Assembly (NCBI GenBank): GCA_021650915.1
Contig: CP091279.1
Location: forward strand, 690,001 to 722,000
Origin: Candidatus Brocadia sp.
GTDB lineage: Bacteria; Planctomycetota; Brocadiia; Brocadiales; Brocadiaceae
Direction: 5' to 3'
Length of the DNA: 32,000 nt
The position numbers and the translations under genes were made by a program. The notes beneath the pieces were generated by a model. That model searched no databases, was not told the DNA's origin, and saw only the letters and a program-made list of their open reading frames with translations. Position 1 is the stretch's first letter; every line of letters starts with the position of its first letter. Positions 3,233 to 30,590 of this stretch are shown here, piece by piece.

Positions 3233-3304
3233 GAGCGCCTGATTGCGTAAATTATCGTATATTATCCTCGCATTCAAGATAATCCTTATTGTTTCTTATC
3301 GCAA

Positions 3305-4915: not shown

Positions 4916-5231
4916 GGGATTATTTCCTTTTAATATTGATCAATACTCTGCTGACACAAATATCTATTTTAATAAAATTCCATCTGGCTTTCATTATGCA
5001 AAGTTATAAACTATTCTGATACAAAATTCCAATGAAGATTGGCGTACAAAGCAACAAGGCCGCAAAAAATCCTTGCATCGTGTTTTTTGCTGATTTATTA
5101 TCGCATATTATAGTCTTGCATAAGCGTCTAACAAAAATATGAATGGACATAACCCTGTCAGGGTTTTGAATCCTGACGGGGCTGACTTGCTTTTCCGACT
5201 CGTTCGGGTTGCGAAATTGAAAGGGAAAATT

Positions 5232-6584: not shown

Positions 6585-6586
6585 AA

Positions 6587-7780: not shown

Positions 7781-7839
7781 GAAAGGTCTCCTCTATGCTG
7801 AGAGTGCTGTGGAAAAGCTCTTGTGGGTCAGACAAATAG

Positions 7840-8550: not shown

Positions 8551-8716
8551 GGCTCATCCTTACGATCTTTTCTTTTGGGTCCATACCAGTTGATATAATA
8601 CCTTTATCCCGTGCTTGCGCAAGACACAGGTATTAATTTTACTTGACTTATCATAAAAAAGCATTAGCATTTTTTTATGTTATCACAAAAGACTTATTTT
8701 GTTTTCAACCGGTAAG

Positions 8717-9127: not shown

Positions 9128-9414
9128 ACAAACCATTCAGGCCGTAAAAATGTTCCGGCATAAAAAAGTGCCGCCGCATTGCTGAAAGGTATTCCTTCGT
9201 GTCGTCTTCAGCTGCCTTTGGCAGCAACTTTTAAGTTTCCCAATAAAGAAAGAGATGTCGAGGGTATAAAAGGCGTTTTGACATACCCCGTAATCATTCG
9301 ACTGAGCGCTCGCGATGAAATCCCTTCTTTTAGAGTGGAATCATAAAAGGTTGAAATCCCTGGTAGTGCAGAGCGCCTATTTGACACTACGAGGCATTTA
9401 TAAAGGAGGATAGT

Positions 9415-11139: not shown

Positions 11140-11339
11140 AAACGGTTAACCATAAAAGATGCCGGGAAAGATTACGGTCAAAAACAGAAGGTTGTTTTTA
11201 TGATTGACACGCATTGTATTCGGCGCAAAGTACGGCATGCTGCATCAGGTTATTTTGACGCAAATACTTTAAACAGGACGGCAAAAATCCTGTCCGATGA
11301 TATAACCGAATGAAACCGATACGAAATTAGGAGGATACC

Positions 11340-15492: not shown

Positions 15493-15530
15493 ACAAGTTT
15501 AAACAATCATGCAATAACAACGTTTCCCAT

Positions 15531-15592
15531 GTAGAGCGACGAGCCTCGTCGCTCTACAACTCTACAACCGCAACTTTGAAATTCCTGTACAT
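15531..15592. repeat. Palindromic repeat element, copy 1 (27-nt perfect palindrome plus conserved tail)
   Basis: GTAGAGCGACGAGCCTCGTCGCTCTAC at 15531-15557 forms 13-bp arms around a central C. The tail AAC(TCTACAAC)CGCAACTTTGAAATTCCTGTACAT is shared with copy 3. It lies 19-80 nt downstream of the gcvPB stop. Confidence 0.9.
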
Positions 15593-17119: not shown

Positions 17120-17169
17120 GATTTTATTCCTTTCAATTTTGCTGAAACAAACGACATCGTTGCCGTTTC

Positions 17170-18945
17170 TTATGGCGCCTCAACCCGGTTTCGTCCTCTT
17201 TTTTTAGCTTTATACAGGGCAAGATCAGCAGCCTCTATGAGGGTTTCGTATTCAGCGCCATGATCCGGGAATGCGGCTACTCCGATGCTTATGGTTATTT
17301 TGATGGGCGACGCATGGGAGTTCATTTTAAATTGAAACGATTCGATGTGCTGGCGGATACCTTCTGCCTTTTTGAGGGTATTCGTGATATCGCTTGAAGG
17401 CATGATTATAACAAATTCCTCGCCGCCGTATCGCGCCAGAACGTCTGACGACCGTATGGAATTTTTCATAATGGAAGCTATCTGTTGCAATGCCTGGTCG
17501 CCTACGACGTGCCCGTACGTGTCATTGATGTTTTTAAAGTGATCCAGATCAGCAATGACAAGGCCAAGTGATTCGTTCCGCCGCTTTGCCAGCGCGATTT
17601 GCTTTTTCAGCATTTCGTCAAAAAATCTCCGGTTATACGCCCCGGTAAGTGAATCCGTTATTGCAGCTCGTCTGGTCAGGTCGATAAGTCTGACCCGCTG
17701 GAGTGCGGATGCCGTCAACCCCACATAGACAAGGAGCAGTTTGCGTATCTCTTCGTTATACCAGTAACCGGTGTCTTTTTTTCCGATAATGACCATTCCG
17801 GAAATGGCGCCACCCGTTATCAGAGGGAGGCATGCATATCCGCCTCCTTCCATTTTATGGATAATGCAGTTGCAGGGGACGTCTTTTGCGCTATTGTCCA
17901 CAACAATTTCACGGCCAGTCCTTATTACCTGGCACAATGGTGGGTCTGCAAGTACGTCAGCCCTGATAAGTTTATGAAGAGGCATGGGCGGACTGATGAG
18001 GGTTGCATCGAATGCCTTTTTTACCTTATCGACAGTTAACACTGCCAGCAGTTCCGGCTGAAAGTGTTCATGCAGGGCAGTTGCCATATGGTGAATCAAT
18101 TTATCCTCCCGCACCTCTTCATTCATGAGGGTAGAAAAATACATAAGATATCCCAGGTCTTTGATATTGGCATCGCGCTGCGACACGGCTTTTTTTAGTT
18201 CCGCCTCGATTCGCTTCCGCTCGGTGATATCGAGCGCCACACAGACAATTCCCTGAACGTCCCCCATATTCCCCCGGATTGGAGTGCCCGAAAAGAGCAC
18301 GGGTATTTTTCTGCCATCTTTTGAAACGTAGGTTTTTTCTGTTTTATGGATAAGGTTTTTTACGATTAAATCGAACCACGGTGGCGGAGCATCGCCTTCT
18401 TCTGAAAAGAGTATTTCCATGGGCTTACCAATAAGTTCATGCTCGTTGTACCCCAGGAGTTCACAGGCGGATCTGTTAACCATCTGGATAGTAAATTCAG
18501 GAGACGTGACCACAAGCGCATCATCCATGTTTTGGGTAATGATGTTTGAGTAGTCTTTTAAAGGAATCGTCCCCTGCAACTCTGCGATCATGGTGTTGGA
18601 GGCATGGTCAATCTTTCCTGCATCGCCGCATGAGGGGATCTCAATACGGTGAAAACGGTCTCCTTGTACTGCCTTTTCAACCGTTGATAGTATTTTCTGC
18701 AGGGGTGAAGTTAATCGGCGCAGGAGGAACCACCCGATAATCATCGCAGGGATGGTGAATGCCGGCAGAGAGAGAAGGGTGTTGCGGGTAAAAGAGGGCG
18801 TCGCCTGATGAAAATAGATTGTGAGGCCGGCAAGAATTCCTGCGGGTAAAATCGTGAGCAGAGAGACGAGCAAAACAAGTTTTATCCTGATGCCTCTCCC
18901 CTGAAATATTTTTGTACTCTTCACTTGGTAACGCCTTTCGTGCAA
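17170..18945 (-). CDS. Membrane-bound diguanylate cyclase (2 TM, HAMP-like, PAS, GAF-like, GGDEF)
   Basis: C-terminal GGDEF domain has the active site RYGGEEF and an RxxD I-site (RSSD) five residues upstream. The PAS-like segment ends in ALDITERKRIEAEL. There are two N-terminal TM helices. The start is uncertain: TTG at 18945 or GTG at 18924. Confidence 0.85.
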   Translation of the reverse strand: MHERRYQVKSTKIFQGRGIRIKLVLLVSLLTILPAGILAGLTIYFHQATPSFTRNTLLSLPAFTIPAMIIGWFLLRRLTSPLQKILSTVEKAVQGDRFHRIEIPSCGDAGKIDHASNTMIAELQGTIPLKDYSNIITQNMDDALVVTSPEFTIQMVNRSACELLGYNEHELIGKPMEILFSEEGDAPPPWFDLIVKNLIHKTEKTYVSKDGRKIPVLFSGTPIRGNMGDVQGIVCVALDITERKRIEAELKKAVSQRDANIKDLGYLMYFSTLMNEEVREDKLIHHMATALHEHFQPELLAVLTVDKVKKAFDATLISPPMPLHKLIRADVLADPPLCQVIRTGREIVVDNSAKDVPCNCIIHKMEGGGYACLPLITGGAISGMVIIGKKDTGYWYNEEIRKLLLVYVGLTASALQRVRLIDLTRRAAITDSLTGAYNRRFFDEMLKKQIALAKRRNESLGLVIADLDHFKNINDTYGHVVGDQALQQIASIMKNSIRSSDVLARYGGEEFVIIMPSSDITNTLKKAEGIRQHIESFQFKMNSHASPIKITISIGVAAFPDHGAEYETLIEAADLALYKAKKRGRNRVEAP

Positions 18946-19016
18946 GCGTCAGTGGGCTCTATAGCCCGTCAATATTCCGGATGCCAGCAAAGTCAGACTT
19001 CAGCAACTTTTTCAAC

Positions 19017-19043
19017 GTAGAGCGACGAGCCTCGTCGCTCTAC
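19017..19043. repeat. Palindromic repeat element, copy 2 (palindrome only)
   Basis: The identical 27-mer GTAGAGCGACGAGCCTCGTCGCTCTAC. It lies 8 nt downstream of the gcvPA stop, in the gcvPA to diguanylate cyclase intergenic gap. Confidence 0.9.
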
Positions 19044-19050
19044 AAAGGTA

Positions 19051-20391
19051 TTACAGGTTGGTTAACTCAGAAACCAACCGATCGATTGATTCTTTGGTCT
19101 TCGTTTCCGTTACACACACAAGCATACTATTGGCCAGTTCAGGGTAAAATGCAGAGAGTTCTAATCCGCCAATGATACCCCTTTGCAACAGGTGTTCATT
19201 GATTTTTTGCATTGGGAGGCTATCAATGGATTTCATGACGAATTCATGAAAGAATGGCTGGGAAAACACCGGCTTGACGATATCCAGGGCGCAGAGCCTT
19301 TCATACGCGTAATGGCTTTTCTGGACGTTCAGCATGGCAAGTTCTGCCAGGCCCTTTTTCCCCAAAGCAGACAGATAGATGCACGTCCGCAGTGCCAGGA
19401 GCGCCTGATTGGTGCATATATTTGAGGTGGCTTTCTCTCTGCGGATATGCTGCTCCCTGGCCTGAAGGGTAAGGACAAAACATCGCCGCCCGTGATGATC
19501 AACCGTCTCTCCGGCAATCCTTCCGGGCATCTTGCGCAGCAGTTCCTTACTGACGGCAAAAAACCCCAGGTAGGGGCCGCCATAATTCAGATAATTTCCC
19601 AGCATCTGGGCTTCACCAATAGCAATATCAGCGCCGTACTCACCCGGCGGTTTCAGGATACCCAGAGAAAGAGGATTGACACAGGCCACAAAAAGGGCGC
19701 CGTGGCGGTGGGTAATCTGTGAGATAGTTTCCATGTCTTCAATACAGCCAAAGAAGTTTGGGTTCTGAATGAGCACGGCGGCAGTGGAATCGTCAATGGC
19801 CGTTTCCAGGTGATGGATGTCAGTTATTCCTTCCGGTGTGCCAATCTCCACGATTTCCGTATGCATCCCTTTCACATAGGTACGGAGCGCCTGTCGGTAT
19901 TCCGGATGGATTGCACGCGAGCAAATGACCTTGTTCTTGTCCTTCAGTCGAATTGATAATAATGCAGCCTCGGCAAATGCCGTTGAGCCATCGTACAGGG
20001 AGGCATTTGCCACGTCCATGCCGGTGAGTTCACACATGAAGGTTTGGAATTCAAAAATCGCCTGAAGGGTGCCCTGGCTTACTTCCGGCTGGTAGGGGGT
20101 GTAGCAGGTATAAAATTCACTCCTTGATGCCAGGTGATCGACCAGGGAAGGGATATAATGTTCATAGGCGCCAGCGCCGAGAAAGGAGATGCACTGGTCG
20201 GTATGGGTATTTTTTTCGCTGAAACGTTTTAGGGATTTTAATACCTGCGGCTCAGAAAGACCGTGAGGTAATTTCATCGAAAAATTTCTCAGGGTCTTGG
20301 GAATGTCCACAAGAAGCGGTTCAAGAGAGGGCAGCCCCATTTCGCGGAGCATCTTTTCTTTATCCCCTTTGGTATGAGGAATGTAATCCAT
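19051..20391 (-). CDS. gcvPA: Glycine dehydrogenase (decarboxylating) subunit 1
   Basis: 446 aa. The block FLGAGAYEHYIPSLVDHLASRSEFYTCYTPYQPEVSQGTLQAIFEFQTFMCELTGMDVANASLYDGSTA is characteristic of GcvPA. Confidence 0.9.
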   Translation of the reverse strand: MDYIPHTKGDKEKMLREMGLPSLEPLLVDIPKTLRNFSMKLPHGLSEPQVLKSLKRFSEKNTHTDQCISFLGAGAYEHYIPSLVDHLASRSEFYTCYTPYQPEVSQGTLQAIFEFQTFMCELTGMDVANASLYDGSTAFAEAALLSIRLKDKNKVICSRAIHPEYRQALRTYVKGMHTEIVEIGTPEGITDIHHLETAIDDSTAAVLIQNPNFFGCIEDMETISQITHRHGALFVACVNPLSLGILKPPGEYGADIAIGEAQMLGNYLNYGGPYLGFFAVSKELLRKMPGRIAGETVDHHGRRCFVLTLQAREQHIRREKATSNICTNQALLALRTCIYLSALGKKGLAELAMLNVQKSHYAYERLCALDIVKPVFSQPFFHEFVMKSIDSLPMQKINEHLLQRGIIGGLELSAFYPELANSMLVCVTETKTKESIDRLVSELTNL

Positions 20392-20478
20392 GTATCTTTG
20401 CTCAGGCGCTGAAAAATACCCGTAGTAAATTACGAACGCATCAATGAATTAGGCCTTCGACGACCCCCCTGTGTCAAT

Positions 20479-20532
20479 GTAGAGCGACGAGCCTCGTCGC
20501 CCTACAACCGTAACTCTGAAATTCCTATCCAT
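20479..20532. repeat. Palindromic repeat element, copy 3 (one mismatch, with tail)
   Basis: GTAGAGCGACGAGCCTCGTCGCCCTAC followed by AACCGTAACTCTGAAATTCCTATCCAT, which is homologous to the copy 1 tail. It lies about 90 nt upstream of the gcvPA start. Confidence 0.85.
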
Positions 20533-20608
20533 TAAAGTAAATATTGAAACAATAATAAGCAGGACAATCAACGAAAAAAGTATTTAGTTATCTGCTGTTA
20601 TTATTTGC

Positions 20609-20638
20609 TTGACACAGATTGTTAGGGCAATATATAGT
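20609..20638 (+). promoter_or_regulatory. Sigma70-like promoter facing the ORF-free region
   Basis: TTGACA at 20609-20614. The -10 box is either TATATA (16-nt spacer) or TATAGT (18-nt spacer). No ORF of 60 aa or more follows on the + strand before the terminators at 21246-21327. Confidence 0.4.
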
Positions 20639-20827
20639 GCACATAATTCACGCTCTTCACAAAGACATTGCCAACAATACCACGATAGAGCGATAAAGGC
20701 GAACCCCGAGTGCTCAGGGGGCGCAAAGTAACAGGGTCTTTCTGTGTACAAGGAGGTACGACTGAATAAAACAGGGACACACCGATGCGTCTCTGTTGCT
20801 GACAAAGGAATGGGACTGAGAAGAGAC

Positions 20828-20878
20828 AGCCTTGCTGCCGAAGGTATTGAGGGGGAGATTGGTGGTAAGGCTTTTTTT
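20828..20878 (+). terminator. Terminator-like structure
   Basis: AGCCTT (20828-20833) can pair with AAGGCT (20867-20872), enclosing an inner CCTT/AAGG hairpin. A T7 run follows immediately. The loop is long, so the call is weak. Confidence 0.3.
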
Positions 20879-20962
20879 GTTTGAACAAAAATGGTGACAA
20901 TGTAGTCTTTAGGAAAATCCAGAAGGGATGACATGATTATAGGAAAAACACATCAGCCATAT

Positions 20963-21298: not shown

Positions 21299-21327
21299 CG
21301 CACTTTTACAAAAAGTGCGTTTTCGTT
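21299..21327 (+). terminator. Intrinsic terminator-like hairpin
   Basis: CGCACTTTT, loop ACA, then AAAAGTGCG (9-bp stem), followed by TTTTCGTT. It ends 14 nt before the attB-like core copy at 21341. Confidence 0.6.
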
Positions 21328-21351
21328 CAGACACTACGTATGTCGTACCTG

Positions 21352-21379
21352 ATTATAAAAACGTATCATAACTGGTCAA
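21352..21379 (-). promoter_or_regulatory. Near-consensus sigma70-like promoter (left copy), reading leftward
   Basis: On the minus strand: TTGACC (21379-21374), 16-nt spacer, TATAAT (21357-21352). The predicted start falls inside the TGTCGTACCTG core. Confidence 0.45.
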
Positions 21380-21460
21380 AAGAGACAAGGGATAAATTGT
21401 CCTGGAAGTCCTGAGATTACAGGTTAGGTCAAAGAAAATAAAAAAACATCAAAATCCATA

Positions 21461-21675
21461 GCGCGGCACAGCCGCAACCAAATTTCCTCTATGAAAACGG
21501 GGAGATTGCTTCGGAAAAGGCCTCGCAATGACAGCGACCATGCACTTTGATGGCACACGGCACGTTGTCATTGCGAGTGAAGCGAAGCAATCTTTCACTC
21601 ATAAAAACCGGTACCTCCTGAGAGTGGTTTGTGAAAAAACTTACAAAAAAAAAGAAGTTTTCATACAGTAATACT
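21461..21675. mobile_element. 215-bp insertion relative to the right repeat copy, with flanking ATA duplication and a long internal hairpin (MITE/PATE-like)
   Basis: Absent from the otherwise identical copy at 30369-30519. ATA occurs at both junctions (21458-21460 and 21676-21678). The internal inverted repeat pairs AGATTGCTTCG..TCGCAATGACA (21503-21533) with TGTCATTGCGA..CGAAGCAATCT (21566-21593). No terminal inverted repeats were seen. Confidence 0.6.
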
Positions 21676-21764
21676 ATAAAAAAGCCTTAGTAATATTTTA
21701 TTGATATTACTGACAATTTTGCAACTCATGGAATATCAAAGGTATACAGAAAATAGGATTTTAG

Positions 21765-21788
21765 CATGTCGTACTTATGTCGTACCTG
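21765..21788. repeat. attL core
   Basis: CATGTCGTACTTATGTCGTACCTG, with an internal tandem TGTCGTAC-TTA-TGTCGTAC. It overlaps the last four codons and stop of the integrase gene. Confidence 0.8.
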
Positions 21789-22944
21789 CTTGAGCAACCA
21801 ATGGTAAAACCCGATTTTTGTCTATACCCAAAATATGGTCTGTTATCCGTTCTATAGCATTACGCTTAACGTCTATTTGTTTGTGACTATACCTCATGGT
21901 CGTAGTAATATCAGAATGGCCTAATAGCTCTTTAGTGGTCACAATGTCCGCCCCTGTGTCGCTCTGCATTGACGCAAAGCTATGTCTAAGATTATGGAAG
22001 GTAAAATTATCGATACCTAACTGTTTGAACAAAGCGCTAAAGTGCTTGCTATACCGGTTCACCATTGCATGAGTTATTTTTCTGCTTTCAAAGAGATAGT
22101 CACAGGTATGAGAGGTCTTATATTCCCTGAATGCCTTTGCCAAATAGCTTGATAATGGCATGACTACTAGTTTATTTGTCTTACTCTGGGTGAAGGTTAT
22201 TAAGCCTTTAGCAAAGTCAATATCCGTCCATTTTAAGCGTAAGACCTCGTTTAACCTCATTCCGGTAAAGAGACCGGTTAATATCATAAAACGATCTTTC
22301 CCGTGAAGTTTCTCAAAGAGCAAGGATACTTCTTCGTTAGTTAATACTTTGTCCCTGGTTTGTGCTACCTTTAGCCGTTTAATATCCTTGCAGGGGTTTT
22401 TGTCCAGAATTCCCGCCTTAATTGCTGTGGTAAACAAATGAGATAAGATCACGACATCATCATTAATACTGCCATCTTTAACGCCGTCTTTTTCTCTGCG
22501 GTCAATTCTGAATTTCTCGATAACAAACGGTGTTACCTTGTTAAGGGTATAATCCCCAAGATAACTGACCAATGTTCTTATGCTCCGTTCTTTTGCAAGC
22601 CGTGTATTCTCTTTTGCTGCCTTGTAAAATCCCAAATAAACCCCGGCATATTCCGCTAAGGTCAGGATAGCCTTTTTCCTGGGTAGATTCAATTTGCCCC
22701 GCTCCCTGTCACTGATAAACAAAGTTAGCCGTTTCTCTGCTTCTGTCTTATTCCGTATGTCCTTAAAGGTAAGCGATTGCCATTGCTTGCTATCGTCAAA
22801 AAACTCGATACACCATACACCACAATCTTTGAATTCACCGTTTGACCGTTTAGGCCGATCACTCGGACAATAACTCTTACCTGGTCTGCCACTGCAAGGG
22901 ATAAGCTTGCATTGTGGGAAATACTTCCGATACCTCACCGCCAT
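21775..22944 (-). CDS. int: Tyrosine recombinase / phage-type integrase
   Basis: Catalytic motifs are present: TGMRLNEVL (Arg), HNLRHSFAS (His-x-x-Arg) and LLGHSDITTTMRYSH (His..Tyr). The start is placed at ATG 22944 (MAVRYRKYF) after a GAAGGA SD. The ORF could extend to 23034. Confidence 0.9.
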   Translation of the reverse strand: MAVRYRKYFPQCKLIPCSGRPGKSYCPSDRPKRSNGEFKDCGVWCIEFFDDSKQWQSLTFKDIRNKTEAEKRLTLFISDRERGKLNLPRKKAILTLAEYAGVYLGFYKAAKENTRLAKERSIRTLVSYLGDYTLNKVTPFVIEKFRIDRREKDGVKDGSINDDVVILSHLFTTAIKAGILDKNPCKDIKRLKVAQTRDKVLTNEEVSLLFEKLHGKDRFMILTGLFTGMRLNEVLRLKWTDIDFAKGLITFTQSKTNKLVVMPLSSYLAKAFREYKTSHTCDYLFESRKITHAMVNRYSKHFSALFKQLGIDNFTFHNLRHSFASMQSDTGADIVTTKELLGHSDITTTMRYSHKQIDVKRNAIERITDHILGIDKNRVLPLVAQAGTT

Positions 22945-23432
22945 ATCACGCCGTCCTTCAAATAAAAAAAGGCAACAAGCTAACATGTGACAGCATGTCA
23001 GCCGTTGCCTTTTGTCGCCCGATTTCTCAGGCATATATTTTAGCGTCTGTCACCGCTTTCCTATTCTCTCGTACGTACTACCGTACCTTTAAACCCTTGT
23101 CAAGTGTTTTTGTCTATTTTTATTCCTTCCTTTTTCTTTTGACGGGTTGAAAAAAATGAGTGAAAAGAGATATCACATTCATCTATTTATTCTTAAATTT
23201 TAAAATTTTTGCGCCTGTTTCATCCGCTTTTCCAGTATTTTCCTAGCGTCTGATAAGATAGCTTATGTTACATTGCGGATATCAAGAATAATCTAAGTCT
23301 TGTGTTTGCATAGATATACGAATCGATACGCAATTTCCGACACCCCACCCCCCCAAAAAATTTGTTCACAAAGAGCCACGAGATATCCCATCTATATAGG
23401 CCGGGGAATTTTTGGTTTTTTTGAAGAGTCTA

Positions 23433-23461
23433 TTGCTATCCATTTTTATGTGTTGTATAAT
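23433..23461 (+). promoter_or_regulatory. Sigma70-like promoter for the small membrane-protein genes
   Basis: TTGCTA (23433-23438), 17-nt spacer, perfect TATAAT (23456-23461). The first in-frame ATG (23475) is about 7 nt from the predicted start, implying a near-leaderless mRNA. Confidence 0.5.
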
Positions 23462-23474
23462 ATTTTTGCAAAAT

Positions 23475-23666
23475 ATGACCAGGAAGCAAAGAGAAAGTAC
23501 CGCTAAATATTTGTATGACATAAGTAAGGGAATTGCCTTACTTACTGTTGTTGGAAATTTCGCAAAAGACAAGCTTGATATTCCTGTTGTTATTTCTGGC
23601 ATTATAGCAACATTAATAATTTTCTTTTGGGCTTATAGTCTGGAAAGGAATATACAAAATGAGTAA
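23475..23666 (+). CDS. Small two-TM membrane protein (63 aa)
   Basis: MTRKQRESTAKYLYDISKGIALLTVVGNFAKDKLDIPVVISGIIATLIIFFWAYSLERNIQNE has two hydrophobic helices. It is the only + strand unit inside the element. Confidence 0.45.
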   Translation: MTRKQRESTAKYLYDISKGIALLTVVGNFAKDKLDIPVVISGIIATLIIFFWAYSLERNIQNE

Positions 23667-23763
23667 TCTTGCGATACTTTTTATAATAATTTCCATAATT
23701 GGATTGATTGGAATATTTTTAACATATTACGGTCAACGAAGGCATTCTAAGCATACCCATTAA
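23659..23763 (+). CDS. Possible 34-aa single-TM peptide, overlapping the stop of the preceding ORF
   Basis: MSNLAILFIIISIIGLIGIFLTYYGQRRHSKHTH. Its ATG overlaps the last codons of the upstream ORF (ATGAGTAA), and its 3' end overlaps the methylase gene end on the opposite strand. It is below the ORF-track size cut-off. Confidence 0.3.
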   Translation: MSNLAILFIIISIIGLIGIFLTYYGQRRHSKHTH

Positions 23764-24571
23764 ACAAATTCCTACTCCTTACTACAGGTTCAAAGTTACA
23801 ATACAACACTTCCACGGTCTTTGGCTTTGATTCACCGGTCGATTTATGGCTACCCTTGAAGGATTGATATTCATATCTGTTCCAGCCAGCATAAAGATTG
23901 TCGTATAACTCATTGGCATAGTGCGAAACCATGATCTTGCCCTTTACCCCGTGCAAGAGTTCTGCAAGCCTGTAATGATCTTCCTGGCTAAAGGAATCCT
24001 TGCCGTAATAGTGTTCTGCATTCCAGTAAGGGGGGTCGGCATAAACCAGAGTTCCAGGACTGTCGTATCGCTTGATACATTCGGCATAGGGCAAATTCTC
24101 AATACAAACATTCCTTAACCTCTTTGCAATGTCGTCCAGCCCGCCGGTAGCATTCCGAAAACTTATTACTGGATTACGCCCGGTTATCGAAGGCACAGCG
24201 AAGCCCCCTCGCAAGACGTCCCCGGCAAATGATGCCTTTGATAAGAAAAAATAGCGTCCAGCTTTCTCGACATCGTCCTGTGTTTCAGTTTTCCTGAAAT
24301 GATTAAAGACGCTACGGCTATACGGTGTTTCATTAAGCAGTTTGATTAACCTTTGTCTCTTTTCATTGTTTTGAATTACCCGATACAGATTTACAAGGCG
24401 CTCATCCTTATCATTCAATATTTCAATCTGTGAGCGCTCTTTGGCAAAGAATAACTTTGCACCACCCGCAAACGGCTCAAGATAGCAAACGTGGTGCGGA
24501 ACATGCTGTAAAAGCCAGCATGTTAAGTAACCCTTGCTCCCAATCCTGCTTGTCACCGAGCGCAACAGCAT
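23747..24571 (-). CDS. DNA N6-adenine methyltransferase, Dam/D12 class (orphan)
   Basis: SAM-binding motif EPFAGGAKLFF and catalytic motif YADPPYW (DPPY). No adjacent restriction endonuclease candidate was found. Confidence 0.85.
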   Translation of the reverse strand: MLLRSVTSRIGSKGYLTCWLLQHVPHHVCYLEPFAGGAKLFFAKERSQIEILNDKDERLVNLYRVIQNNEKRQRLIKLLNETPYSRSVFNHFRKTETQDDVEKAGRYFFLSKASFAGDVLRGGFAVPSITGRNPVISFRNATGGLDDIAKRLRNVCIENLPYAECIKRYDSPGTLVYADPPYWNAEHYYGKDSFSQEDHYRLAELLHGVKGKIMVSHYANELYDNLYAGWNRYEYQSFKGSHKSTGESKPKTVEVLYCNFEPVVRSRNLFNGYA

Positions 24572-24781
24572 TCAATTAGCCTCTTGACGGTTTCGATTGA
24601 TAAATGCTTCCAGGTCGGAAAGTTTGAAACGATTCAAACGTCCGATTTTAACTACCGGAACCTTCTTGCGCATGCACATATCATACAGAGTAGAAACCTT
24701 TATTTTTAAGTAATCAGATGCCTCTTGCATGGTCATAAGTCCGCCACCATCTTCAACGACTTTCAATTCAGTCATTTGCAA
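24572..24781 (-). CDS. Excisionase/AlpA-like helix-turn-helix DNA-binding protein
   Basis: MTMQEASDYLKIKVSTLYDMCMRKKVPVVKIGRLNRFKLSDLEAFI fits the excisionase-family (MerR-like HTH_17) pattern. Its stop codon directly abuts the methylase ATG (TGAATG). Confidence 0.75.
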   Translation of the reverse strand: MQMTELKVVEDGGGLMTMQEASDYLKIKVSTLYDMCMRKKVPVVKIGRLNRFKLSDLEAFINRNRQEAN

Positions 24782-24790
24782 TCCTCCATT

Positions 24791-25078
24791 TTAGTTTGAA
24801 AAGAATTTATATCTTTTAATTATTTCTTCGTTTGCATTAAGCTCTTTTAATGTATCTAATATGCTTTGACCTCTATTCCACCAGTGAAACCGGCCTGGCG
24901 AATTAAAAGGAATCCTGAGAATGTCATTTTCAAGGTATGGCAAAGGTTTGATTTTGCCTTCCTTGATAAGCTTTAAGGCTTTTTCTTCTTTAAGGATAAT
25001 AGTCTGTCCAGGTTTCAAAGTTAAAGAACCACCCTCCTTTGTTTTTACCGTGAACGTTTTCAGTGCCTCATATTTCAT
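24791..25078 (-). CDS. Hypothetical protein (95 aa)
   Basis: The start overlaps the primase-helicase stop in an ATGA arrangement, suggesting translational coupling. No motif recognised. Confidence 0.55.
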   Translation of the reverse strand: MKYEALKTFTVKTKEGGSLTLKPGQTIILKEEKALKLIKEGKIKPLPYLENDILRIPFNSPGRFHWWNRGQSILDTLKELNANEEIIKRYKFFSN

Positions 25079-27162
25079 ATTTCCACCCCCAGCGCATCAA
25101 GGTCTATTGGTTCATTTTCTTCTTTCGGTGTATCCGTTAGTTTTGAGTCGTCCGGACTGGTCTGGACTACCCCAGAGTTTTCAAAGTGGTCTGGACTGGT
25201 TACGGCATGACTGGTCTGACTGGTCTGGCTATGCGCTGGACTGCTGGACTGGTCTGTAAAATCAGGGGATTCCAGCCTTTTTTGTGGTGACTGGTCTTTT
25301 TTGTCTGGACTGGTTGTGGCCAAGTAGTCCGGTAGTCCAGGTGTATAGGCACGGACTACTGGACTGGTTACTTTGTAATGCGTCGGTTTACCCTTCCCCT
25401 GACTTTCAGAGTTCCAGTATTTACCCATTCCTTTTCTAAGCAAATAGGTAAGTTTGCCTTTGCTTTTTATGCCGATCTTGCTCTTAACAAGTTCAAAGAT
25501 GTCATTCGTTTTTAACGGTTCTTTCCCCATCAAAAGGCTGTGTATTTCTTCAATGGTCTCTATCTCAGGGTCGGGACTAAGTCTAAAACATCCCCTTTCG
25601 GTGTCAAATTCGAGGAACATATGAAAAGGTTCATATCTGGTCTTGTCTTTAGTACCTAATCTATAGTAATAATCGTCCGAATCTTCGTTATCATCTTCGC
25701 TTGCATCATCCATTGTGTAACTACCCCTTTTAACTTTATGAAAACCCAAGACATGGTCAGCAAGGTCAAATATAGCAGTACTGCCTTTATACTGCTTGTC
25801 ATTGCTTTTTACCGTATGATGCAATATTAAGATTGTAAAACCGCAGTCTCTTAACTCCTTTAACCGTTGCATTATCATAGCCATGTGCTGGCTGTCATTT
25901 TCGTCACGGCTTTGGCTTGCCCTCAATGTGTCGAATATCAGAAGGCTTCCCTCTGGTAGTTTTTTATAAAGCTCGTATTCTCTACTGTCTAACCTTGGTG
26001 GTTTTATCTCGTTTGTCGGATGCCAAAACAAGACATTGCTTGCGTCTATCCGCTTAACACGCTCGACAAGGGTAGGTAATGAATTTTCAAAGTCGATATA
26101 AACAACTTGCATCCTCGTTGTTTCAAGTCCAAGAAATGGAGTTCCCTTGCTAACGGCATCCCCCATACCAATTGAAAGTATGGTCTTACCCATACCCCCA
26201 CGTGCTGAAAGTAACGTAATGGCTTGTTGTGGTATGAGTCCTTTTACCGCCCAACTTATAGGAAGGTCTAAAACTTGAAGTTCCGCACCAACTTGTAAGG
26301 CTTTCGTAATGTCAAAGCCTGTAGTTTCGTTGCATTCCTTCGGTATCCATTCAGAAGCGTTTTTTACGGTCTCAATCAGCTTTGCCCTGTCATTATCTGG
26401 CATTCTTACCCAGTCAACGATATCCCCTTTTTCTTGGAGTCCTGGAAGCTCCACCACTTTCAGTTCCCCCACCTTACCATGCAACACATTGGCGATTCTC
26501 AAGGCATACTCCCGGCCAGGCTTATCATTGTCGGGTAGGATAATCACCTTTTTCTTGCCTTCAAAGGCTTCGAGATACCCCTCTTGCCAGGCGGAGTTAG
26601 CTCCACTGTCTAAACAGGTAGCAGTTAACCCCCAGTTAGTAAGAAGGTCGGCCTTAGCTTCCCCCTCGACAATAAAGACATACTTTGTCTTGGTAAGCTC
26701 TGGCAGTCTATACAGGACAGGATCACACCCCCTACCTAGTACCCACTTACCATCTTCCAGGTATTTAAAAACAAATTCTTTAGACCTTCCATTACGTCCC
26801 GGTTCAATCCGCTCTTTAACATAAAGCGTCTTGCCGTCCTTGTCCTTATATTCGAATTGAGCTACAACCTTTGGCTTTATATCTGATTTGATAGTCCCAA
26901 CCATTTCTCCCATCTCCAGTAAGGCCGTTGGGAAATCAACGCCCTTGAATTTTTGGTAGAATGTGAAGACATCGCCTTTACAACCACAGGCAAAGCAATG
27001 GAAAAGACCTGACTGAATATTCACGGACAAGGAGGGGTTTTTGTCCTGGTGGAAGGGGCAAAGCCCAAGTGCTTCTGCCTTGCCTTTAATCTTCAGGGAA
27101 GAGACATGCTTCTGGTAAAATTCGGAATAATTAATTTTCTCTAAGATTTGCTCTTTCTTCAT
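25075..27162 (-). CDS. Bifunctional DNA primase / RecA-like (RepA/AAA_25-type) helicase
   Basis: CHC2 zinc finger CPFHQDKNPSLSV..HCFACGCKGDVFTF. Toprim motifs FIVEGEAKADLL and ILPDNDKPGREYA. Walker A ARGGMGKT and Walker B LLIFDTL. The C-terminal tail is Ser/Pro/Thr/Asp-rich. Confidence 0.85.
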   Translation of the reverse strand: MKKEQILEKINYSEFYQKHVSSLKIKGKAEALGLCPFHQDKNPSLSVNIQSGLFHCFACGCKGDVFTFYQKFKGVDFPTALLEMGEMVGTIKSDIKPKVVAQFEYKDKDGKTLYVKERIEPGRNGRSKEFVFKYLEDGKWVLGRGCDPVLYRLPELTKTKYVFIVEGEAKADLLTNWGLTATCLDSGANSAWQEGYLEAFEGKKKVIILPDNDKPGREYALRIANVLHGKVGELKVVELPGLQEKGDIVDWVRMPDNDRAKLIETVKNASEWIPKECNETTGFDITKALQVGAELQVLDLPISWAVKGLIPQQAITLLSARGGMGKTILSIGMGDAVSKGTPFLGLETTRMQVVYIDFENSLPTLVERVKRIDASNVLFWHPTNEIKPPRLDSREYELYKKLPEGSLLIFDTLRASQSRDENDSQHMAMIMQRLKELRDCGFTILILHHTVKSNDKQYKGSTAIFDLADHVLGFHKVKRGSYTMDDASEDDNEDSDDYYYRLGTKDKTRYEPFHMFLEFDTERGCFRLSPDPEIETIEEIHSLLMGKEPLKTNDIFELVKSKIGIKSKGKLTYLLRKGMGKYWNSESQGKGKPTHYKVTSPVVRAYTPGLPDYLATTSPDKKDQSPQKRLESPDFTDQSSSPAHSQTSQTSHAVTSPDHFENSGVVQTSPDDSKLTDTPKEENEPIDLDALGVEI
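25150..25380. repeat. Iteron-like array of short direct repeats (core GGACTGG / GACTGGTCTG) inside the 3' end of the primase-helicase gene
   Basis: GACTGGTCTG occurs at 25155, 25209, 25218 and 25247, and 9/10 at 25289. TCTGGACTGG occurs at 25190 and 25304. GGACTGG occurs again at 25371. That is at least eight copies of the core in about 230 bp, encoding the repeated TSPD/QTS tail. Confidence 0.8.
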
Positions 27163-27292
27163 GGCCTATCGCCTCAATAAGAAACGTTGCGGAGTCAACG
27201 AGGGAATTTCGCTCTTTTGTAATTGGTTTTGAAGCGATTTCGTCCCTGAATGCACTCAAAAGTTTTCTTAAAATTTTTTTGGCCTTTCTCAT
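27131..27292 (-). CDS. Possible small basic protein (53 aa) at the head of the primase operon
   Basis: ATG at 27292 lies 7 nt after a strong SD (TAGGAGGCTGGGCAATG). The translation is MRKAKKILRKLLSAFRDEIASKPITKERNSLVDSATFLIEAIGHEERANLREN. It overlaps the primase start by 32 nt. It is below the ORF-track cut-off. Confidence 0.35.
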   Translation of the reverse strand: MRKAKKILRKLLSAFRDEIASKPITKERNSLVDSATFLIEAIGHEERANLREN

Positions 27293-27350
27293 TGCCCAGC
27301 CTCCTAAAGAATCTTTATTGATAATCCTTTTCCACTATTTAATAATATAA

Positions 27351-27375
27351 GTAACACATGTGTATATAGTGTTAC
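27351..27375. promoter_or_regulatory. Palindromic operator candidate GTAACA-N13-TGTTAC (site 1)
   Basis: GTAACAcatgtgtatatagTGTTAC lies in the gap between the 241-aa gene and the small-ORF/primase operon. It has the same half-sites and the same 13-nt spacing as site 2. Confidence 0.55.
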
Positions 27376-27392
27376 TAATGTGTAAAAATAAT

Positions 27393-28118
27393 TTAATCGT
27401 AGGATGTTTTCAATTTGTACAAGACAGCAGTAATCTCCTTTTTGTCTTTCTCACTAAGTTTCGGTTTCTGTATGATTTCTATAGCACTCTTTATTATGGA
27501 TTTTTTTAATTTACAAATTATGCGTTCCTCTGCTTTTTCTAAAGCCTCCAGCGTCCGTTTCGAAGCTTTTCGAGCAGCCTTGTTTTTACTCATCAATTCA
27601 AAAATTAGGTACACCTCCATTTTCATCGTCAGATCGTCTGTATTTATCAAGTCCAATAATTGAGATGTAATCGTTTTTAAAATATCTTGATTGTAATTTG
27701 GAATGTCATCAAAATCTCGAAGGTCAACATGTGGCAGAGGATTACACGATAAGTCGGCGATTAATGAATCTTTAAAATGTACTTCCAGTTCTCTTTTGTT
27801 AGACCTATGCCATTCTTTGAAATGCGTGATAAAATATTCAGTAAAATCATGGCAATTTTTTTCGTACATTTCTTTGAAATTAGGTTCAGTTCGCCATTTC
27901 CGCAAGAGACCGTAAGAAATATCCGCTAGCCTGGTTATATCTTTCGCTTGTTTGATTATATCCTTCAAGGGGAAGTTGTAAAGCATAACCAAACAAATTA
28001 AGTATTTAGAATAAGACATGCCTATAGGATCACCTTTAGGCACTCCTTTTCGAGTCGGTTCTTTGTAGTTTGAAAGTCTATCAATGATAAAATTTAACAG
28101 TAAAGTACGTTTTCCCAT
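27393..28118 (-). CDS. Hypothetical protein with a probable N-terminal HTH (candidate element regulator)
   Basis: 241 aa with an AGGAGGG SD 7 nt upstream. The segment LKDIIKQAKDITRLADISYGLLRKWRTE looks like a helix-turn-helix. The C-terminal half is helical and charged. No family was recognised. Confidence 0.6.
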   Translation of the reverse strand: MGKRTLLLNFIIDRLSNYKEPTRKGVPKGDPIGMSYSKYLICLVMLYNFPLKDIIKQAKDITRLADISYGLLRKWRTEPNFKEMYEKNCHDFTEYFITHFKEWHRSNKRELEVHFKDSLIADLSCNPLPHVDLRDFDDIPNYNQDILKTITSQLLDLINTDDLTMKMEVYLIFELMSKNKAARKASKRTLEALEKAEERIICKLKKSIIKSAIEIIQKPKLSEKDKKEITAVLYKLKTSYD

Positions 28119-28139
28119 TTTAAATCCCTCCTGATATTG

Positions 28140-28164
28140 GTAACAATATATACTAAATTGTTAC
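28140..28164. promoter_or_regulatory. Palindromic operator candidate GTAACA-N13-TGTTAC (site 2)
   Basis: GTAACAatatatactaaatTGTTAC overlaps the -10 box and spacer of the promoter of the 241-aa gene. Confidence 0.55.
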
Positions 28165-28173
28165 TATTGTCAA
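28145..28173 (-). promoter_or_regulatory. Sigma70-like promoter of the 241-aa gene
   Basis: On the minus strand: TTGACA (28173-28168), 17-nt spacer, TATATT (28150-28145), about 27 nt upstream of the ATG at 28118. Confidence 0.55.
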
Positions 28174-28225
28174 TATAAATTTTTAAGAACAATACATCTA
28201 GGGAAATGGACTTGCCAGGTATCCC

Positions 28226-29020
28226 CTATCCCTCAATTAACTTTAACATCTCAATTGCATTTCTAACCGACTTCCCTGCATGGCAATTATTGAACATAAC
28301 TAAGGTATGCCTGGTAGCGCCGGATATTTTCTTTATATCAGACACAAAAATCTTCAAATCATCGGGGGTATACAGATAGTCATACCGTTCTGCTACTGAA
28401 GCATCAAACCAATTTGCATTCCTGCCGTGAAACCTGAAATATCCAAGATCGGTTGTTGCCGTTGGATTATACGGCATGAGACCTTTGAGTTTGGGTTCAT
28501 CTACAATGCAGTATCCAATGTTGTTCTCTTTGAGAAATGTTAGACCTCTTTCGCTATGCCAGTAATAGTTTCTAAACTCTACTACCAATGGTATGTCTTT
28601 CAGTCTCTCTTTGAAAGTCAGAAGGTAGTCATAATTATCTTTTACTGCGTGAAAGCTATAGGGGAATTGAGCGAGAACTGCGGTTAGCCTGTTTTCCTTC
28701 TTTAAAGGTTCGATGGCATATAGGAAGCGATCAAAGGCATCTTTATTGTCAATGAATGCCCCTGTATCTTTATCCCGTATATCATGAGTCATTGATTTAT
28801 GCGCCTTGATGGTAAATTCAAAACCCGGAGAGGTCTTTTTAATCATGCCTTCAAAGGATTTTGGGGAGGGAATTGTATAATACGTGGAATTAATCTCCGT
28901 TATCTTAAATCCAAGCTTCTGTTCGTAAAACGGTAGCATCTCTCCCTTTTTAATATTGGCAGGACAAACAGTGCCTACCCAATCGGGAAACGAAAAACCC
29001 GAGGTACCGACTTTGATCAT
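28226..29020 (-). CDS. DUF72 (YecE-like) family protein
   Basis: The N-terminus MIKVGTSGFSFPDWVGTVCP matches the characteristic DUF72 start (GTSGWSYxxW). The 264-aa length is typical. Confidence 0.8.
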   Translation of the reverse strand: MIKVGTSGFSFPDWVGTVCPANIKKGEMLPFYEQKLGFKITEINSTYYTIPSPKSFEGMIKKTSPGFEFTIKAHKSMTHDIRDKDTGAFIDNKDAFDRFLYAIEPLKKENRLTAVLAQFPYSFHAVKDNYDYLLTFKERLKDIPLVVEFRNYYWHSERGLTFLKENNIGYCIVDEPKLKGLMPYNPTATTDLGYFRFHGRNANWFDASVAERYDYLYTPDDLKIFVSDIKKISGATRHTLVMFNNCHAGKSVRNAIEMLKLIEG

Positions 29021-29184
29021 CTTGATAACTATTCTTTATTGAAAAACCTTTTAAAGCAATAAATATAGCGTCTAAAAATTAAGGGGACATCGTTCATAAT
29101 TCATTCCATAGAATTAAGTAAACTGTCCTTGGAATTCCCACTTTAATCTTTGCCTTGACCTGTTCCATAAGCTACCTCCAAGTA

Positions 29185-29610
29185 TTAATTTCTCTGCTCT
29201 GTATCCGTGTATTTTATGACTTTGCCAGATATAGCAGTTTCCATTTGCTCTTGCTCATCTAAAACATATAAATTACCAACCGGAATAGCAACCGTCCCAC
29301 CACTTCGCATTCGCATAGTTGTTCTTATTTGAATGACTCCATCACCACCTACTTGTCGTGTTTTCTCTTCAATAATAGGAGTTATATTTTTCTCGTGAAT
29401 AATGAATCCGTTTATTTCTCCTATAACAACATAATCTCTGGTAGGCATTTTATCCCCAAAAAATAGGTCTATAGGACATCCTTCTGGCTTTGCTTGATAA
29501 TTTGTCTTTTCATAATTTACAAAAGCAAACTGATTTCTTGCCGCACTTTCAATTGTTGCACAACCACTTAATGTTAAACAAGCAGCTAATACAATTAATA
29601 TAGCCTTCAT
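29185..29610 (-). CDS. Small lipoprotein of unknown function
   Basis: Signal peptide with lipobox MKAILIVLAACLTLSGC. The GGAG-containing SD AAGGAGATG lies upstream. Confidence 0.7.
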   Translation of the reverse strand: MKAILIVLAACLTLSGCATIESAARNQFAFVNYEKTNYQAKPEGCPIDLFFGDKMPTRDYVVIGEINGFIIHEKNITPIIEEKTRQVGGDGVIQIRTTMRMRSGGTVAIPVGNLYVLDEQEQMETAISGKVIKYTDTEQRN

Positions 29611-29734
29611 TTTACATCTCCTTATATTTGTTCAGTTATCTATTTAATACAGTAACTATAGTATTACCTTATAAAATCTTTGTTTTTTTGTACGTTTTTA
29701 GACAACCCCCTGCACCTCCTTTTCTAAGGGGGAC

Positions 29735-29760
29735 TTTGGTTGCGGCTGTGCTGCGTTATG
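29735..29760. repeat. Short dispersed repeat, inverted copy of 21457-21482
   Basis: TTTGGTTGCGGCTGTGCTGCGTTATG is the reverse complement (24/26) of CATAGCGCGGCACAGCCGCAACCAAA at the left edge of the 215-bp insertion. Confidence 0.8.
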
Positions 29761-29924
29761 AATATAATGTGTAATATGAGTGTAATATAGGCATGAAATT
29801 CCATTTTCATGGAGACTGGCTGATTATGATAGCACTTTACAGGAACAAGTCAATACACATTCGTTCAGATAAAAAGACGTATGGACATATCAAAATCCTT
29901 CAAAAGTCTGAAGTTTAATAACCT

Positions 29925-29970
29925 TAAACAAAAATAGCCTGATATGCCATTTCCGACATACCAGGCTATT
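29925..29970 (-). terminator. Terminator-like hairpin in the ORF-free right arm of the element
   Basis: AATAGCCTG (29933-29941) pairs with CAGGCTATT (29962-29970), with extra inner pairing. On the minus strand it is followed by TTTTTGTTT. Confidence 0.5.
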
Positions 29971-30355
29971 GTTTAAAGCTCCGCAGATACTTAATACGCT
30001 TTGATCGCTTCTCGGATCGTCATCCTATCCCTTAATTAACAATCATCCTATTTTCACCCAGGCCTTTTTGTTTGCATACGACAGGGAAATGGATAATAGA
30101 TATATGTCAAAGAGAAAAATACCATACCCCCCTCCCATCACACAAACAAAAATACACCCGCCTTTTTATTCGCTTTCAGCGTTAATAGACGTCAGTATTT
30201 CCGTTTTTACAAAAATATTTTCAAGGCATCTTAGCCTTAGCATAAACATCATGATTATGGCTGCCTACGAATATTGTTCGGGCAATTTTTCCTTCATTAA
30301 TTTGGCAAGTATTCCTATATTAATGTTAGACATATTCGACAATTTCGGTAACTTT

Positions 30356-30379
30356 CATGTCGTACTTATGTCGTACCTG
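30356..30379. repeat. attR core
   Basis: A perfect second copy of CATGTCGTACTTATGTCGTACCTG. Confidence 0.8.
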
Positions 30380-30519
30380 ATTATAAAAACGTATCATAAC
30401 TGGTCAAAAGAGACAAGGGATAAATTGTCCTGGAAGTCCTGAGATTACAGGTTAGGTCAAAGAAAATAAAAAAACATCAAAATCCATAAAAAAGCCTTAG
30501 TAATATTTTATTGATATTA
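30369..30519. repeat. Right copy of the long direct repeat (chromosomal flank of attR)
   Basis: Identical to 21341-21460 plus 21676-21709. It lacks the 215-bp insertion. Confidence 0.9.
30380..30407 (-). promoter_or_regulatory. Near-consensus sigma70-like promoter in the attR flank, reading into the element
   Basis: On the minus strand: TTGACC (30407-30402), 16-nt spacer, TATAAT (30385-30380). The -10 box starts at the base adjacent to the att core. Confidence 0.45.
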
Positions 30520-30590
30520 TATAAAGCAACGGTAAGATAATTGAAAAGAATTGTCCCAGAAACAATGCGGAAATGAGATCAGGAGGCGGC

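Follow-up and report, generated by a model that had tools for sequence, protein, structure and literature searches.

A putative 8.8-kb integrative element with a lambda-style attachment site in an anammox Brocadia chromosome, and its relatives in the Brocadiales

Anammox bacteria are important both to the nitrogen cycle and to the treatment of wastewater. Here we describe an integrative element in the chromosome of Candidatus Brocadia sp., within a stretch of 32,000 nucleotides (contig CP091279.1, positions 690,001 to 722,000 of the forward strand; hereafter the window, with its first letter as position 1). On one side of the element are the glycine-cleavage genes, with a PAS-GGDEF gene between the gcvP subunits; on the other is a radical SAM gene with a long reading frame that begins near 30655. 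The element is intergenic, about 135 nt upstream of this gene, and no tRNA or tmRNA that could serve as an integration target was found in the window. The region is a repeatedly assembled piece of an anammox Planctomycetota chromosome of the B. fulgida type, and we take it to be real because independent assemblies reproduce its sequence: the Candidatus Brocadia fulgida contigs LAQJ01000136.1 and LAQJ01000151.1 match it at 99.96-99.97% identity, and at 99.9-100% it is matched by many Logan contigs and by contigs of a JGI anammox enrichment from 2011 (ANAMFRP). In all B. fulgida-type assemblies examined, the element sits at one identical site.

From end to end, the element carries a tyrosine integrase, a pair of small membrane proteins, and a long minus-strand string of genes that includes a DNA methylase, a helix-turn-helix (HTH) protein of the excisionase family and a primase-helicase, followed by a non-coding right arm (Table 1). 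An earlier reading of the same DNA, the original prediction, had described it as an integrative element with an integrase, excisionase-like and primase-helicase backbone, and this description stands. Profile searches recovered every gene it listed with the domains it had assigned, and the arm it called free of open reading frames (ORFs) holds no credible one. It had also pointed to a perfect 24-bp direct repeat, CATGTCGTACTTATGTCGTACCTG, as the flank of the element. This 24-mer does occur exactly twice, with no match in 100 shuffles; it is a tandem TGTCGTAC-TTA-TGTCGTAC, its 8-mer is found five times where 0.30 occurrences are expected, and the stop codon (TAA) of the integrase gene (int) falls inside the left copy, as had been noted. 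It is the role of the repeat, and with it the position of the ends, that we read differently.

The ends of the element are predicted to be a second, perfect 34-nt direct repeat further out, which has a period of 8810 bp and no match in shuffled sequence. The element would thus measure 8810 bp (21710-30519, equivalently 21676-30485) and would not end at 21765 and 30379. Within each 34-nt repeat, the core is an 8-7-8 inverted repeat. These ends emerged only through comparison of relatives, which we describe below. In 10 of 10 elements for which both ends were available, a locus-specific direct repeat of 11-34 nt was found outside the 24-mer-type sites, 52-104 nt beyond the TGTCGTAC site on the integrase side and 120-155 nt beyond the far site, and the flanks diverge on either side of each of these outer repeats. 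Joining the ends rebuilds an attP of 253-277 bp in all ten, and of approximately 253 bp for the window element. Several of the family cores are, like the one in the window, inverted repeats around a 7-nt spacer, with arms of 5-7 bp in five of the nine other elements.

Table 1. Features of the element and its immediate left flank, in window coordinates; functions and site names are predictions.
Feature	Position	Strand	Remarks
Remnant P arm outside the element	21340-21460		Half arm-type site and duplicate of right arm
215-bp segment interrupting the remnant arm	21461-21675		Absent from right-hand copy; internal inverted repeats
attL core, left 34-bp repeat	21676-21709		AGTAATAT 21689-21696, spacer TTTATTG 21697-21703, ATATTACT 21704-21711
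P' arm of attP, 55 nt	21710-21764		Conserved among family members
P' arm-type integrase sites (left 24-mer)	21765-21788		Overlap int stop codon
Tyrosine integrase, 389 aa from M31	21775-22944 (longest ORF to 23034)	-	PF00589, E = 3e-32
GTACG-rich patch upstream of int	23069-23087		Conserved in family
63-aa membrane protein	23475-23666	+	Weak DUF6722 match; family backbone gene
34-aa membrane peptide	23659-23763	+	Adjoins 63-aa gene in relatives too
D12/Dam-class N6-adenine DNA methyltransferase	23747-24571	-	No partner nuclease; in every family member
HTH_17/excisionase-family DNA-binding protein, 67 aa (69 aa from TTG 24781)	24572-24775	-	
95-aa protein	24791-25078	-	Overlaps primase-helicase stop (ATGA)
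Primase-helicase	25075-27162	-	CHC2 zinc finger, Toprim, RecA-like AAA_25, disordered acidic/Ser-Pro tail
53-aa protein	27131-27292	-	Overlaps primase start
241-aa protein	27393-28118	-	All-helical, N-terminal HTH; promoter-like site 28145-28173
DUF72 protein, cargo	28226-29020	-	TIM barrel, nuclease-like according to the literature; absent from all relatives
141-aa lipoprotein, cargo	29185-29610	-	Lipobox LSGC; absent from all relatives
Non-coding right arm	29611-30355		No credible ORF
P arm-type integrase sites (right 24-mer)	30356-30379		
P arm of attP	30380-30485		Family-conserved; ATCAAAA-type repeats; in relatives GAATT-N-AATTC-type palindrome
attR core, right 34-bp repeat	30486-30519		AGTAATAT 30499-30506, TTTATTG 30507-30513, ATATTATA 30514-30521

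With the ends placed in this way, the 24-mers are best read as pairs of arm-type integrase sites inside the element, one pair on each arm of a lambda-style attP, with the P pair about 135-150 nt and the P' pair about 65-85 nt from the core. In every family integrase gene the TGTCGTAC motif coincides with the stop codon or closely follows it, and the motif returns at the far end of each element (consensus in the orientation of the integrase gene, AAAGGTACGGCGTAAGTACGACATAAG), and it is kept across integrases that are just 45-68% identical, whereas the cores differ. This is the layout of the heterobivalent integrase type, to which we assign the element by its sequence pattern: conserved sites on the P and P' arms, and a core sequence that changes with the target. 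The arm-site reading would also explain why about 170 nt beyond the far 24-mer and about 60 nt beyond the copy next to the integrase gene are conserved across elements that sit at differing chromosomal loci. The GTACG-rich patch upstream of int, which the original prediction had offered with caution as an integrase site, gains support from conservation, as TTTAAAGGTACGGTAGTACGTAC, a near-identical sequence, lies upstream of int in 10 of the 16 family loci examined; it is likely to be a third integrase-binding site and to act as an autoregulatory operator. One relative departs from the common layout. In the element of Anammoxibacter OFTM214 (L051, about 11164-11320), the arm-type motif and a P-arm-like sequence follow the integrase stop in inverted orientation, with GTCGTACTCTCGTCGTAC first, which may reflect an inversion or a different attP arrangement.

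Two other readings of the ends have to be weighed against this one. If the 24-mer were itself the att core, the element would be the 8.6 kb between its copies and excision would join GGTAACTTTC-24mer-CTTGAGC. A perfect 24-bp direct repeat with zero chance expectation speaks for this, as does the integrase stop inside the repeat, which is also seen in some elements whose attP abuts int. Yet the motif is kept beside every family integrase whatever the locus, about 60 nt and 110-150 nt outside the copies are conserved family-wide as well, and all ten elements have a locus-specific repeat further out. The two copies are not alike in most relatives, where one half differs (GCCGTACC vs GTCGTACC), and each is built of an 8-mer repeated directly in tandem, not of an inverted repeat around an overlap region. 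The junctions that this reading predicts, GGTAACTTTC-24mer-CTTGAGCAACC for a circle of 8591 bp and GGATTTTAG-24mer-ATTATAAAAACG for the empty site, are absent from all 93 sequences that were fetched, and we now consider the original placement of the boundary very improbable. The 24-mer is also present verbatim in eight unrelated metagenome contigs, which speaks against it as the crossover core. The sequence to the right of the 24-mer could instead be a multi-copy chromosomal landing pad, a small gene or RNA at whose 5' end the elements insert. Its 170 nt or so are conserved at different loci and in eight metagenome contigs, a tiny ORF (MSYL[IV][IV]KTY...) starts in the 24-mer, and there are two tandem copies both in the window and in B. 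sinica. However, the length of this ORF up to its stop ranges between 11 and more than 25 codons, and in B. sinica the ATG is missing, so it was rejected as a gene; no Rfam match was found, and a one-sided target does not explain the conservation on the integrase side as well. The landing pad was rejected once the outer repeats of all ten elements placed the conserved right-flank sequence inside the element, and there is hardly any probability left in it.

The 34-nt repeat makes its own predictions, namely attP as AAAATCCAT-34mer-CTGACAATTTTGC and attB as CAGTAATACT-34mer-TATAAAGCAACGG after excision, and attL as CAGTAATACT-34mer-CTGACAATT and attR as AAAATCCAT-34mer-TATAAAGC in the integrated state. 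Among the 93 sequences, the circle junction with the 34-nt core was found in one Logan contig. The Logan contig L071 (ERR15459716, 8840 nt) corresponds exactly to 21676-30515 and has a terminal overlap of 30 nt, which gives a cycle of 8810 nt; L071 has 10-15 similar places. In contig L085 (ERR3169468), the order is int, P' arm, core, P arm. L071, L085 and a further contig, L081 (ERR3169466), run through P arm and core unbranched, where an integrated copy should cause branching. For the paths of L071 and L085 to arise, chromosomal branches must be missing or have much lower coverage, a situation consistent with an excised circle or with tandem copies. Some observations weigh against this reading: most Logan contigs break at 21680 and 30396, as the integrated state predicts; the Logan graphs have k-1 = 30, which is shorter than the 34-nt core, so that L071 and L085 may be artefacts of the graph or may reflect tandem copies; and no empty attB was found. 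A 31-aa ORF that spans the junction of attR and flank, looked up as a marker of the empty site, is not on record.

A variant element sits at the same attB in two other sequences (L024, WBZY01001124.1; L025, Ga0245520_00237). It has the same attL, the same membrane-protein pair and a 99.8% identical integrase, and from about 24037 onward it diverges, with a different methylase (62% identical), a different HTH protein (47% identical) and different downstream genes; a protein of 354-373 aa replaces the 95-aa protein and the primase. This pattern points to module exchange between family members. The chromosome next to attL tells of earlier events as well. A third half-copy of the arm-type site, ATGTCGTACCTG at 21340-21351 (TGTCGTAC at 21341-21348), is followed by 121 nt identical to 30368-30488, and about 150 nt of what had been supposed to be the right chromosomal flank recur left of attL. 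The same remnant is present in the strain with the variant element, and at the B. sinica locus, too, a remnant P arm lies outside attL, though in diverged form. Left of the remnant arm, no traces of element genes were found. The half-site and the duplicate most likely remain from the attR arm of a previous copy or an earlier tandem at the same attB, and a remnant arm at the core would mean that this attB has been used before. The 215-bp segment that interrupts the remnant contains inverted GATTGCTTCG...CGAAGCAATC motifs and is not high-copy in the sequences at hand; a partial inverted copy (49 nt, 80% complementary) lies at 29715-29763 in the right arm of the element.

The proteins fit an element of this kind. 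The integrase probably starts at M31 (MAVRYRKYF), as in all relatives; in an alignment of 22 sequences that includes the window protein, R230, K255, H317, R320, H343 and Y352 are invariant, and the N-terminal region has four conserved cysteines. The HTH_17 protein reaches 43.4 bits with the TIGR01764 model "excise" (cut-off 28.8) and matches PF12728 at E = 1.2e-13. The last 110 or so residues of the primase-helicase (25075-25400) form a low-complexity tail of Ser, Pro, Asp and Gln, and short direct DNA repeats lie within it (25189-25206 and 25303-25320). The family of the 95-aa protein has been seen only in these elements. Its structural model has a predicted local distance difference test (pLDDT) score of 84, and an N-terminal beta domain weakly resembles the GINS B-domain (local matches, E >= 0.04); that it serves as a replisome accessory is a guess. 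The 53-aa ORF overlaps the start of the primase-helicase gene by 32 nt (27131-27162) in another frame, and it is probably a real, coupled gene, because it is kept at 47-55% identity in the same place in at least three relatives (L029, L034, L043). In the published B. fulgida draft (L070, LAQJ01000151.1), the integrase gene is split into two called ORFs of 289 and 96 aa, and shorter versions of the DUF72 and 53-aa genes are given. Over 10.4 kb, this contig aligns to the window with four gap openings, which look like sequencing indels and not real pseudogenes.

The 241-aa protein gave no match in Pfam, PHROGs or NCBIfam. An exhaustive search brought up 710 relatives (a word-indexed search, 2), none with an annotation. 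The model is all-helical, with a pLDDT of 91 and a predicted template modelling (pTM) score of 0.88, and it has no fold match in PDB or BFVD. Weak hits of the N-terminal HTH to PF10668, the HTH of small terminases (best E 5.5e-5), and to transposase HTH families were found in 12 of 60 members. One distant relative lies beside an HTH_17 gene in another mobile-looking context, and the proteins at the same position in the related elements are not homologous by hhalign. For its neighbour, the literature describes DUF72 proteins as TIM barrels related to UV-damage endonuclease, with predicted binding to damaged DNA (PMC11791011, PMC3828134).

Consensus scans yielded the promoter-like sites that follow. 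One at 28145-28173 is oriented towards the 241-aa gene and the long string of backbone genes, and one at 29826-29853 on the minus strand faces the lipoprotein and DUF72 genes. A third (30380-30407, minus strand) lies in the P arm, abuts the arm sites and faces a terminator with a 17-bp stem at 29933-29970 on the minus strand, whose hairpin is kept in the metagenome contig L018. The attR core overlaps a promoter-like TTGATA that faces the downstream radical SAM gene. It may be the -35 element of that gene, in which case the promoter would be rebuilt by the element. A search of the non-coding arms for origin-like iterons gave nothing convincing, and Rfam returned just a meaningless sub-threshold miRNA hit for the right arm and flank.

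Outside the element, the glycine-cleavage P-protein is encoded by two subunit genes (502 aa and 446 aa) at 15611-20391 on the minus strand, and the gene between them encodes a PAS-GGDEF diguanylate cyclase of about 584-591 aa, near a cyclic di-GMP (c-di-GMP) riboswitch. This c-di-GMP-I riboswitch (20688-20842, plus strand; score 35.5 against the Rfam gathering score of 35) is the sole gathering-level Rfam match in the window. No convincing ORF follows it, and a terminator-like hairpin at 21299-21319 stands directly before the remnant arm; a 116-aa ORF that overlaps the riboswitch on the opposite strand (20584-20934) is probably spurious. In contig L018, the far arm of a related element holds a similar riboswitch-like stretch and then three small ORFs. 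A 28-nt GC-rich palindrome, GTAGAGCGACGAGCCTCGTCGCTCTAC, recurs in the intergenic sequence around the gcvP genes (15530-15557, 19017-19044 and 20478-20505). Its copies resemble repetitive extragenic palindromic (REP) elements, and Logan contigs break at the copy near 20503.

At least 224 relatives of the integrase were found at 45-100% identity, and the named ones all belong to Brocadia, Jettenia, Loosdrechtia, Anammoxibacter or unclassified Brocadiaceae and Planctomycetota. On these sequences, the family was found only in anammox Brocadiales. We collected 35 loci from species-representative genomes, with up to four per genome, and compared the backbones of 18 elements by tblastn and clustering. 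These 18 elements share a fixed module of HTH_17 protein, Dam-class methylase, one or more small membrane proteins on the opposite strand, and integrase. A replication module precedes the fixed module and differs among elements (CHC2-Toprim-AAA_25; CHC2 and D5_N; BT4734_N and PriCT_2; Prim-Pol; Rep_O and DnaB_C; CHC2 and DUF3987), and the variable genes lie at the far end. The claim that the element carries mostly uncharacterised cargo therefore holds only in part. The methylase, the HTH protein and the 63-aa and 34-aa pair are backbone, the 95-aa and 53-aa proteins recur in several relatives, and the lipoprotein, the DUF72 protein and the 241-aa protein are the only genes without a counterpart in any relative. 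The defence-system scan that had been suggested for such cargo brought little, as PADLOC gave only methylase models and a mad1-like HTH.

Some relatives carry genes that are derived from phages. A small terminase (terS) is present in 5 of the 18, by phrog_57 in four (E = 3e-34) and by Terminase_4 in the B. sinica element, and one relative has an AntA/ANT antirepressor; none of these carriers has any other virion gene. The B. sinica relative (L029, BAFN01000001.1, about 921-11260) is 10.5 kb long, lies beside a pyruvate kinase gene, and carries Terminase_4, ERCC4 and PC4-like genes as well as a 300-aa protein without assignment between the HTH protein and the methylase. Literature searches found nothing that links anammox bacteria with phage satellites, and no description of these elements under Brocadia, integrase and mobile genetic element. 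The family thus appears as a Brocadiales-specific, satellite-like group for which no description was found. Its integration mechanism is conventional; the host group, the methylase in the backbone and the possible satellite lifestyle are what is new.

By analogy, the integration module would work like that of phage lambda. Four of five defining features are present, and the fifth, binding of the arm sites by the N-terminal domain, is predicted. Like lambda, the element has a central core in which inverted repeats enclose a 7-bp spacer, arm-type sites that recur on each of the two arms, an excisionase-family HTH protein, and an attP of about 250 bp; lambda attP spans roughly -152 to +82, and here the span is approximately -152 to +85 from the centre of the spacer. 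Between lambda and HK022, arm sites are conserved while core specificity diverges, as among the members of this family. Unlike lambda, the window element has tandem TGTCGTAC 8-mers, in the same pair and orientation on both arms, and its P' sites contain the int stop; the cysteine-rich N-terminal domain has no sequence match to that of lambda, and the carrier is not a phage. Indeed, no capsid, large terminase, portal, tail, lysis, relaxase or type IV secretion system (T4SS) gene was matched in the element with Pfam, PHROGs, NCBIfam and PADLOC, and we rejected a prophage for want of the virion and lysis genes, and an integrative and conjugative or mobilizable element for want of a relaxase, T4SS or coupling protein, in agreement with the original prediction. 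A methylation-associated defence system (MADS) was rejected too: the HTH protein reaches 41.6 bits against the NF047737 cut-off of 80, and PADLOC found mad1 at E = 7e-8 and no other mad component.

The comparison with phage satellites is closer. In common with phage-inducible chromosomal islands (PICIs), members of the family measure 6-11 kb and have an integrase at one end, an AlpA/Xis-like HTH protein, a primase or replicase, a one-directional gene string, accessory genes at the far end and, in some members, terS as the sole virion-related gene. The window element itself has the integrase, an AlpA/Stl-type regulator and the primase/replicase. These three components alone make up the "Type C" that the authors of SatelliteFinder set aside as too ambiguous (PMC10085698), and the window element reaches only this ambiguous level. 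None of the PICI genes for packaging or capsid interference (terS, ppi, cpm, rpp) was found in it, nor was an Stl-like repressor recognised. It differs further in the Dam-class methylase and small membrane-protein pair fixed in the backbone, and in its host phylum, the Planctomycetota, which the text of PMC10085698 does not mention. P4-like satellites share with it a size of about 10 kb, an integrase, an AlpA-type HTH protein, a large primase-helicase and cargo near one end. P4 alpha joins a primase to a D5-type helicase; the window primase-helicase is CHC2-Toprim-AAA_25, and D5_N occurs only in the B. sinica relative. The hijacking genes given for P4-like satellites in PMC10085698 (psu, delta, sid, epsilon/Ash) have no Pfam, PHROG or NCBIfam match among the ORFs of the element. 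A P4-like satellite was rejected for the missing psu, delta, sid and epsilon and for the different primase-helicase architecture, and the host is also unrelated. The PICMI elements of Vibrionaceae, to go by the description in the abstract (PMC10803314), are likewise small and reduced in gene content and have no capsid-remodelling genes; the backbone here differs in that it includes a methylase and a primase-helicase. Satellite-like, as the original prediction had put it, is therefore apt for some relatives, which carry terS or an antirepressor, and less so for the window element, which has no hijacking gene and fails the P4-like comparison.

Taken together, we consider it probable that this is an 8810-bp Brocadiales integrative element with a lambda-style attP, which would be excised and replicated as a circle. 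In this scheme, the integrase would act on an attP of about 253 bp, with its cysteine-rich N-terminal domain bound to the arm sites and crossover in the 34-bp repeat, and the HTH_17 excisionase would direct excision of the 8810-bp circle. The primase-helicase would replicate the circle, aided by the overlapping 53-aa and 95-aa proteins, the backbone methylase would mark the DNA of the element for protection or timing, and the lipoprotein and DUF72 cargo would be expressed from their own promoter-like site. The weakest step is transfer between cells, which would depend on a helper phage. Helper dependence is our best guess, and a tentative one, because relatives pair integrase, excisionase and a replication module with terS or an antirepressor as their sole phage-derived extras. 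The satellite reading is plausible on these grounds. That the window element belongs to a phage-satellite family of anammox Planctomycetota, with a backbone of its own, several members per genome, and replication and hijacking modules that are swapped, is a somewhat doubtful possibility. Against the scheme as a whole, the arms have no convincing iterons, and the binding of integrase to the TGTCGTAC sites is predicted from the lambda analogy. In the window element, neither terS nor an antirepressor nor any other recognisable hijacking gene is present, and no candidate for a helper phage turned up. Searches of IMG/VR gave no relative of either the integrase or the primase-helicase; they also gave no copy of the predicted circle junction or of a TGTCGTAC arm-site 20-mer, and just a single weak relative of a family terS (32% identity over 118 of 180 residues).

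There are two further ways to see the element as a whole. It might be an autonomous, plasmid-like integrating replicon that moves by vesicles, transformation or some unrecognised transfer, with the terS of its relatives as incidental cargo. Its own primase-helicase, integrase and excisionase would suit such a replicon, as would the missing hijacking gene, the empty IMG/VR searches, and several backbone proteins without an assigned function, among them the membrane pair. On the other hand, profile searches found no relaxase, coupling protein or FtsK-like translocase, the small terminase, antirepressor, Rep_O and Prim-Pol modules of the relatives are phage-derived, and PICI-type satellites are recognised by terS alone next to int, xis and pri (PMC10085698). 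We hold this explanation to be rather unlikely. It might also be an immobile, decaying island, the remnant of a prophage or satellite that is now only inherited vertically. The shared site in all B. fulgida-type assemblies, the absence of an empty site, the adjoining remnant arm, which shows that decay happens at the locus, and the split int of LAQJ01000151 could all be taken in that sense. Yet the two att cores match perfectly, and so do the two pairs of arm sites; every backbone ORF is intact, not only in the window but also in over 20 Logan contigs with 100% identity; 18 elements from different loci agree in size range and synteny; a module-swapped variant occupies the same attB; and cycle-like contigs exist. 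We judge decay to be quite unlikely, and the sequence evidence favours a genuine integrative element that is probably active and still mobile.

For the reading of other genomes, the case means that a perfect direct repeat beside an integrase gene need not be the att core; in this case we read it as a pair of arm-type sites. Small, modular and apparently active elements, several per genome, would be a natural supply of integration tools, with an integrase, an attP of 253 bp and a defined attB. If the family does consist of satellites, this would imply still unknown helper phages of anammox bacteria, and the block of lipoprotein, DUF72 and 241-aa genes would become a candidate for anti-phage or exclusion cargo. 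The family would also give a handle on the biology of anammox phages, from the helper phages themselves to the specificity of terS and the genes that are carried as cargo.

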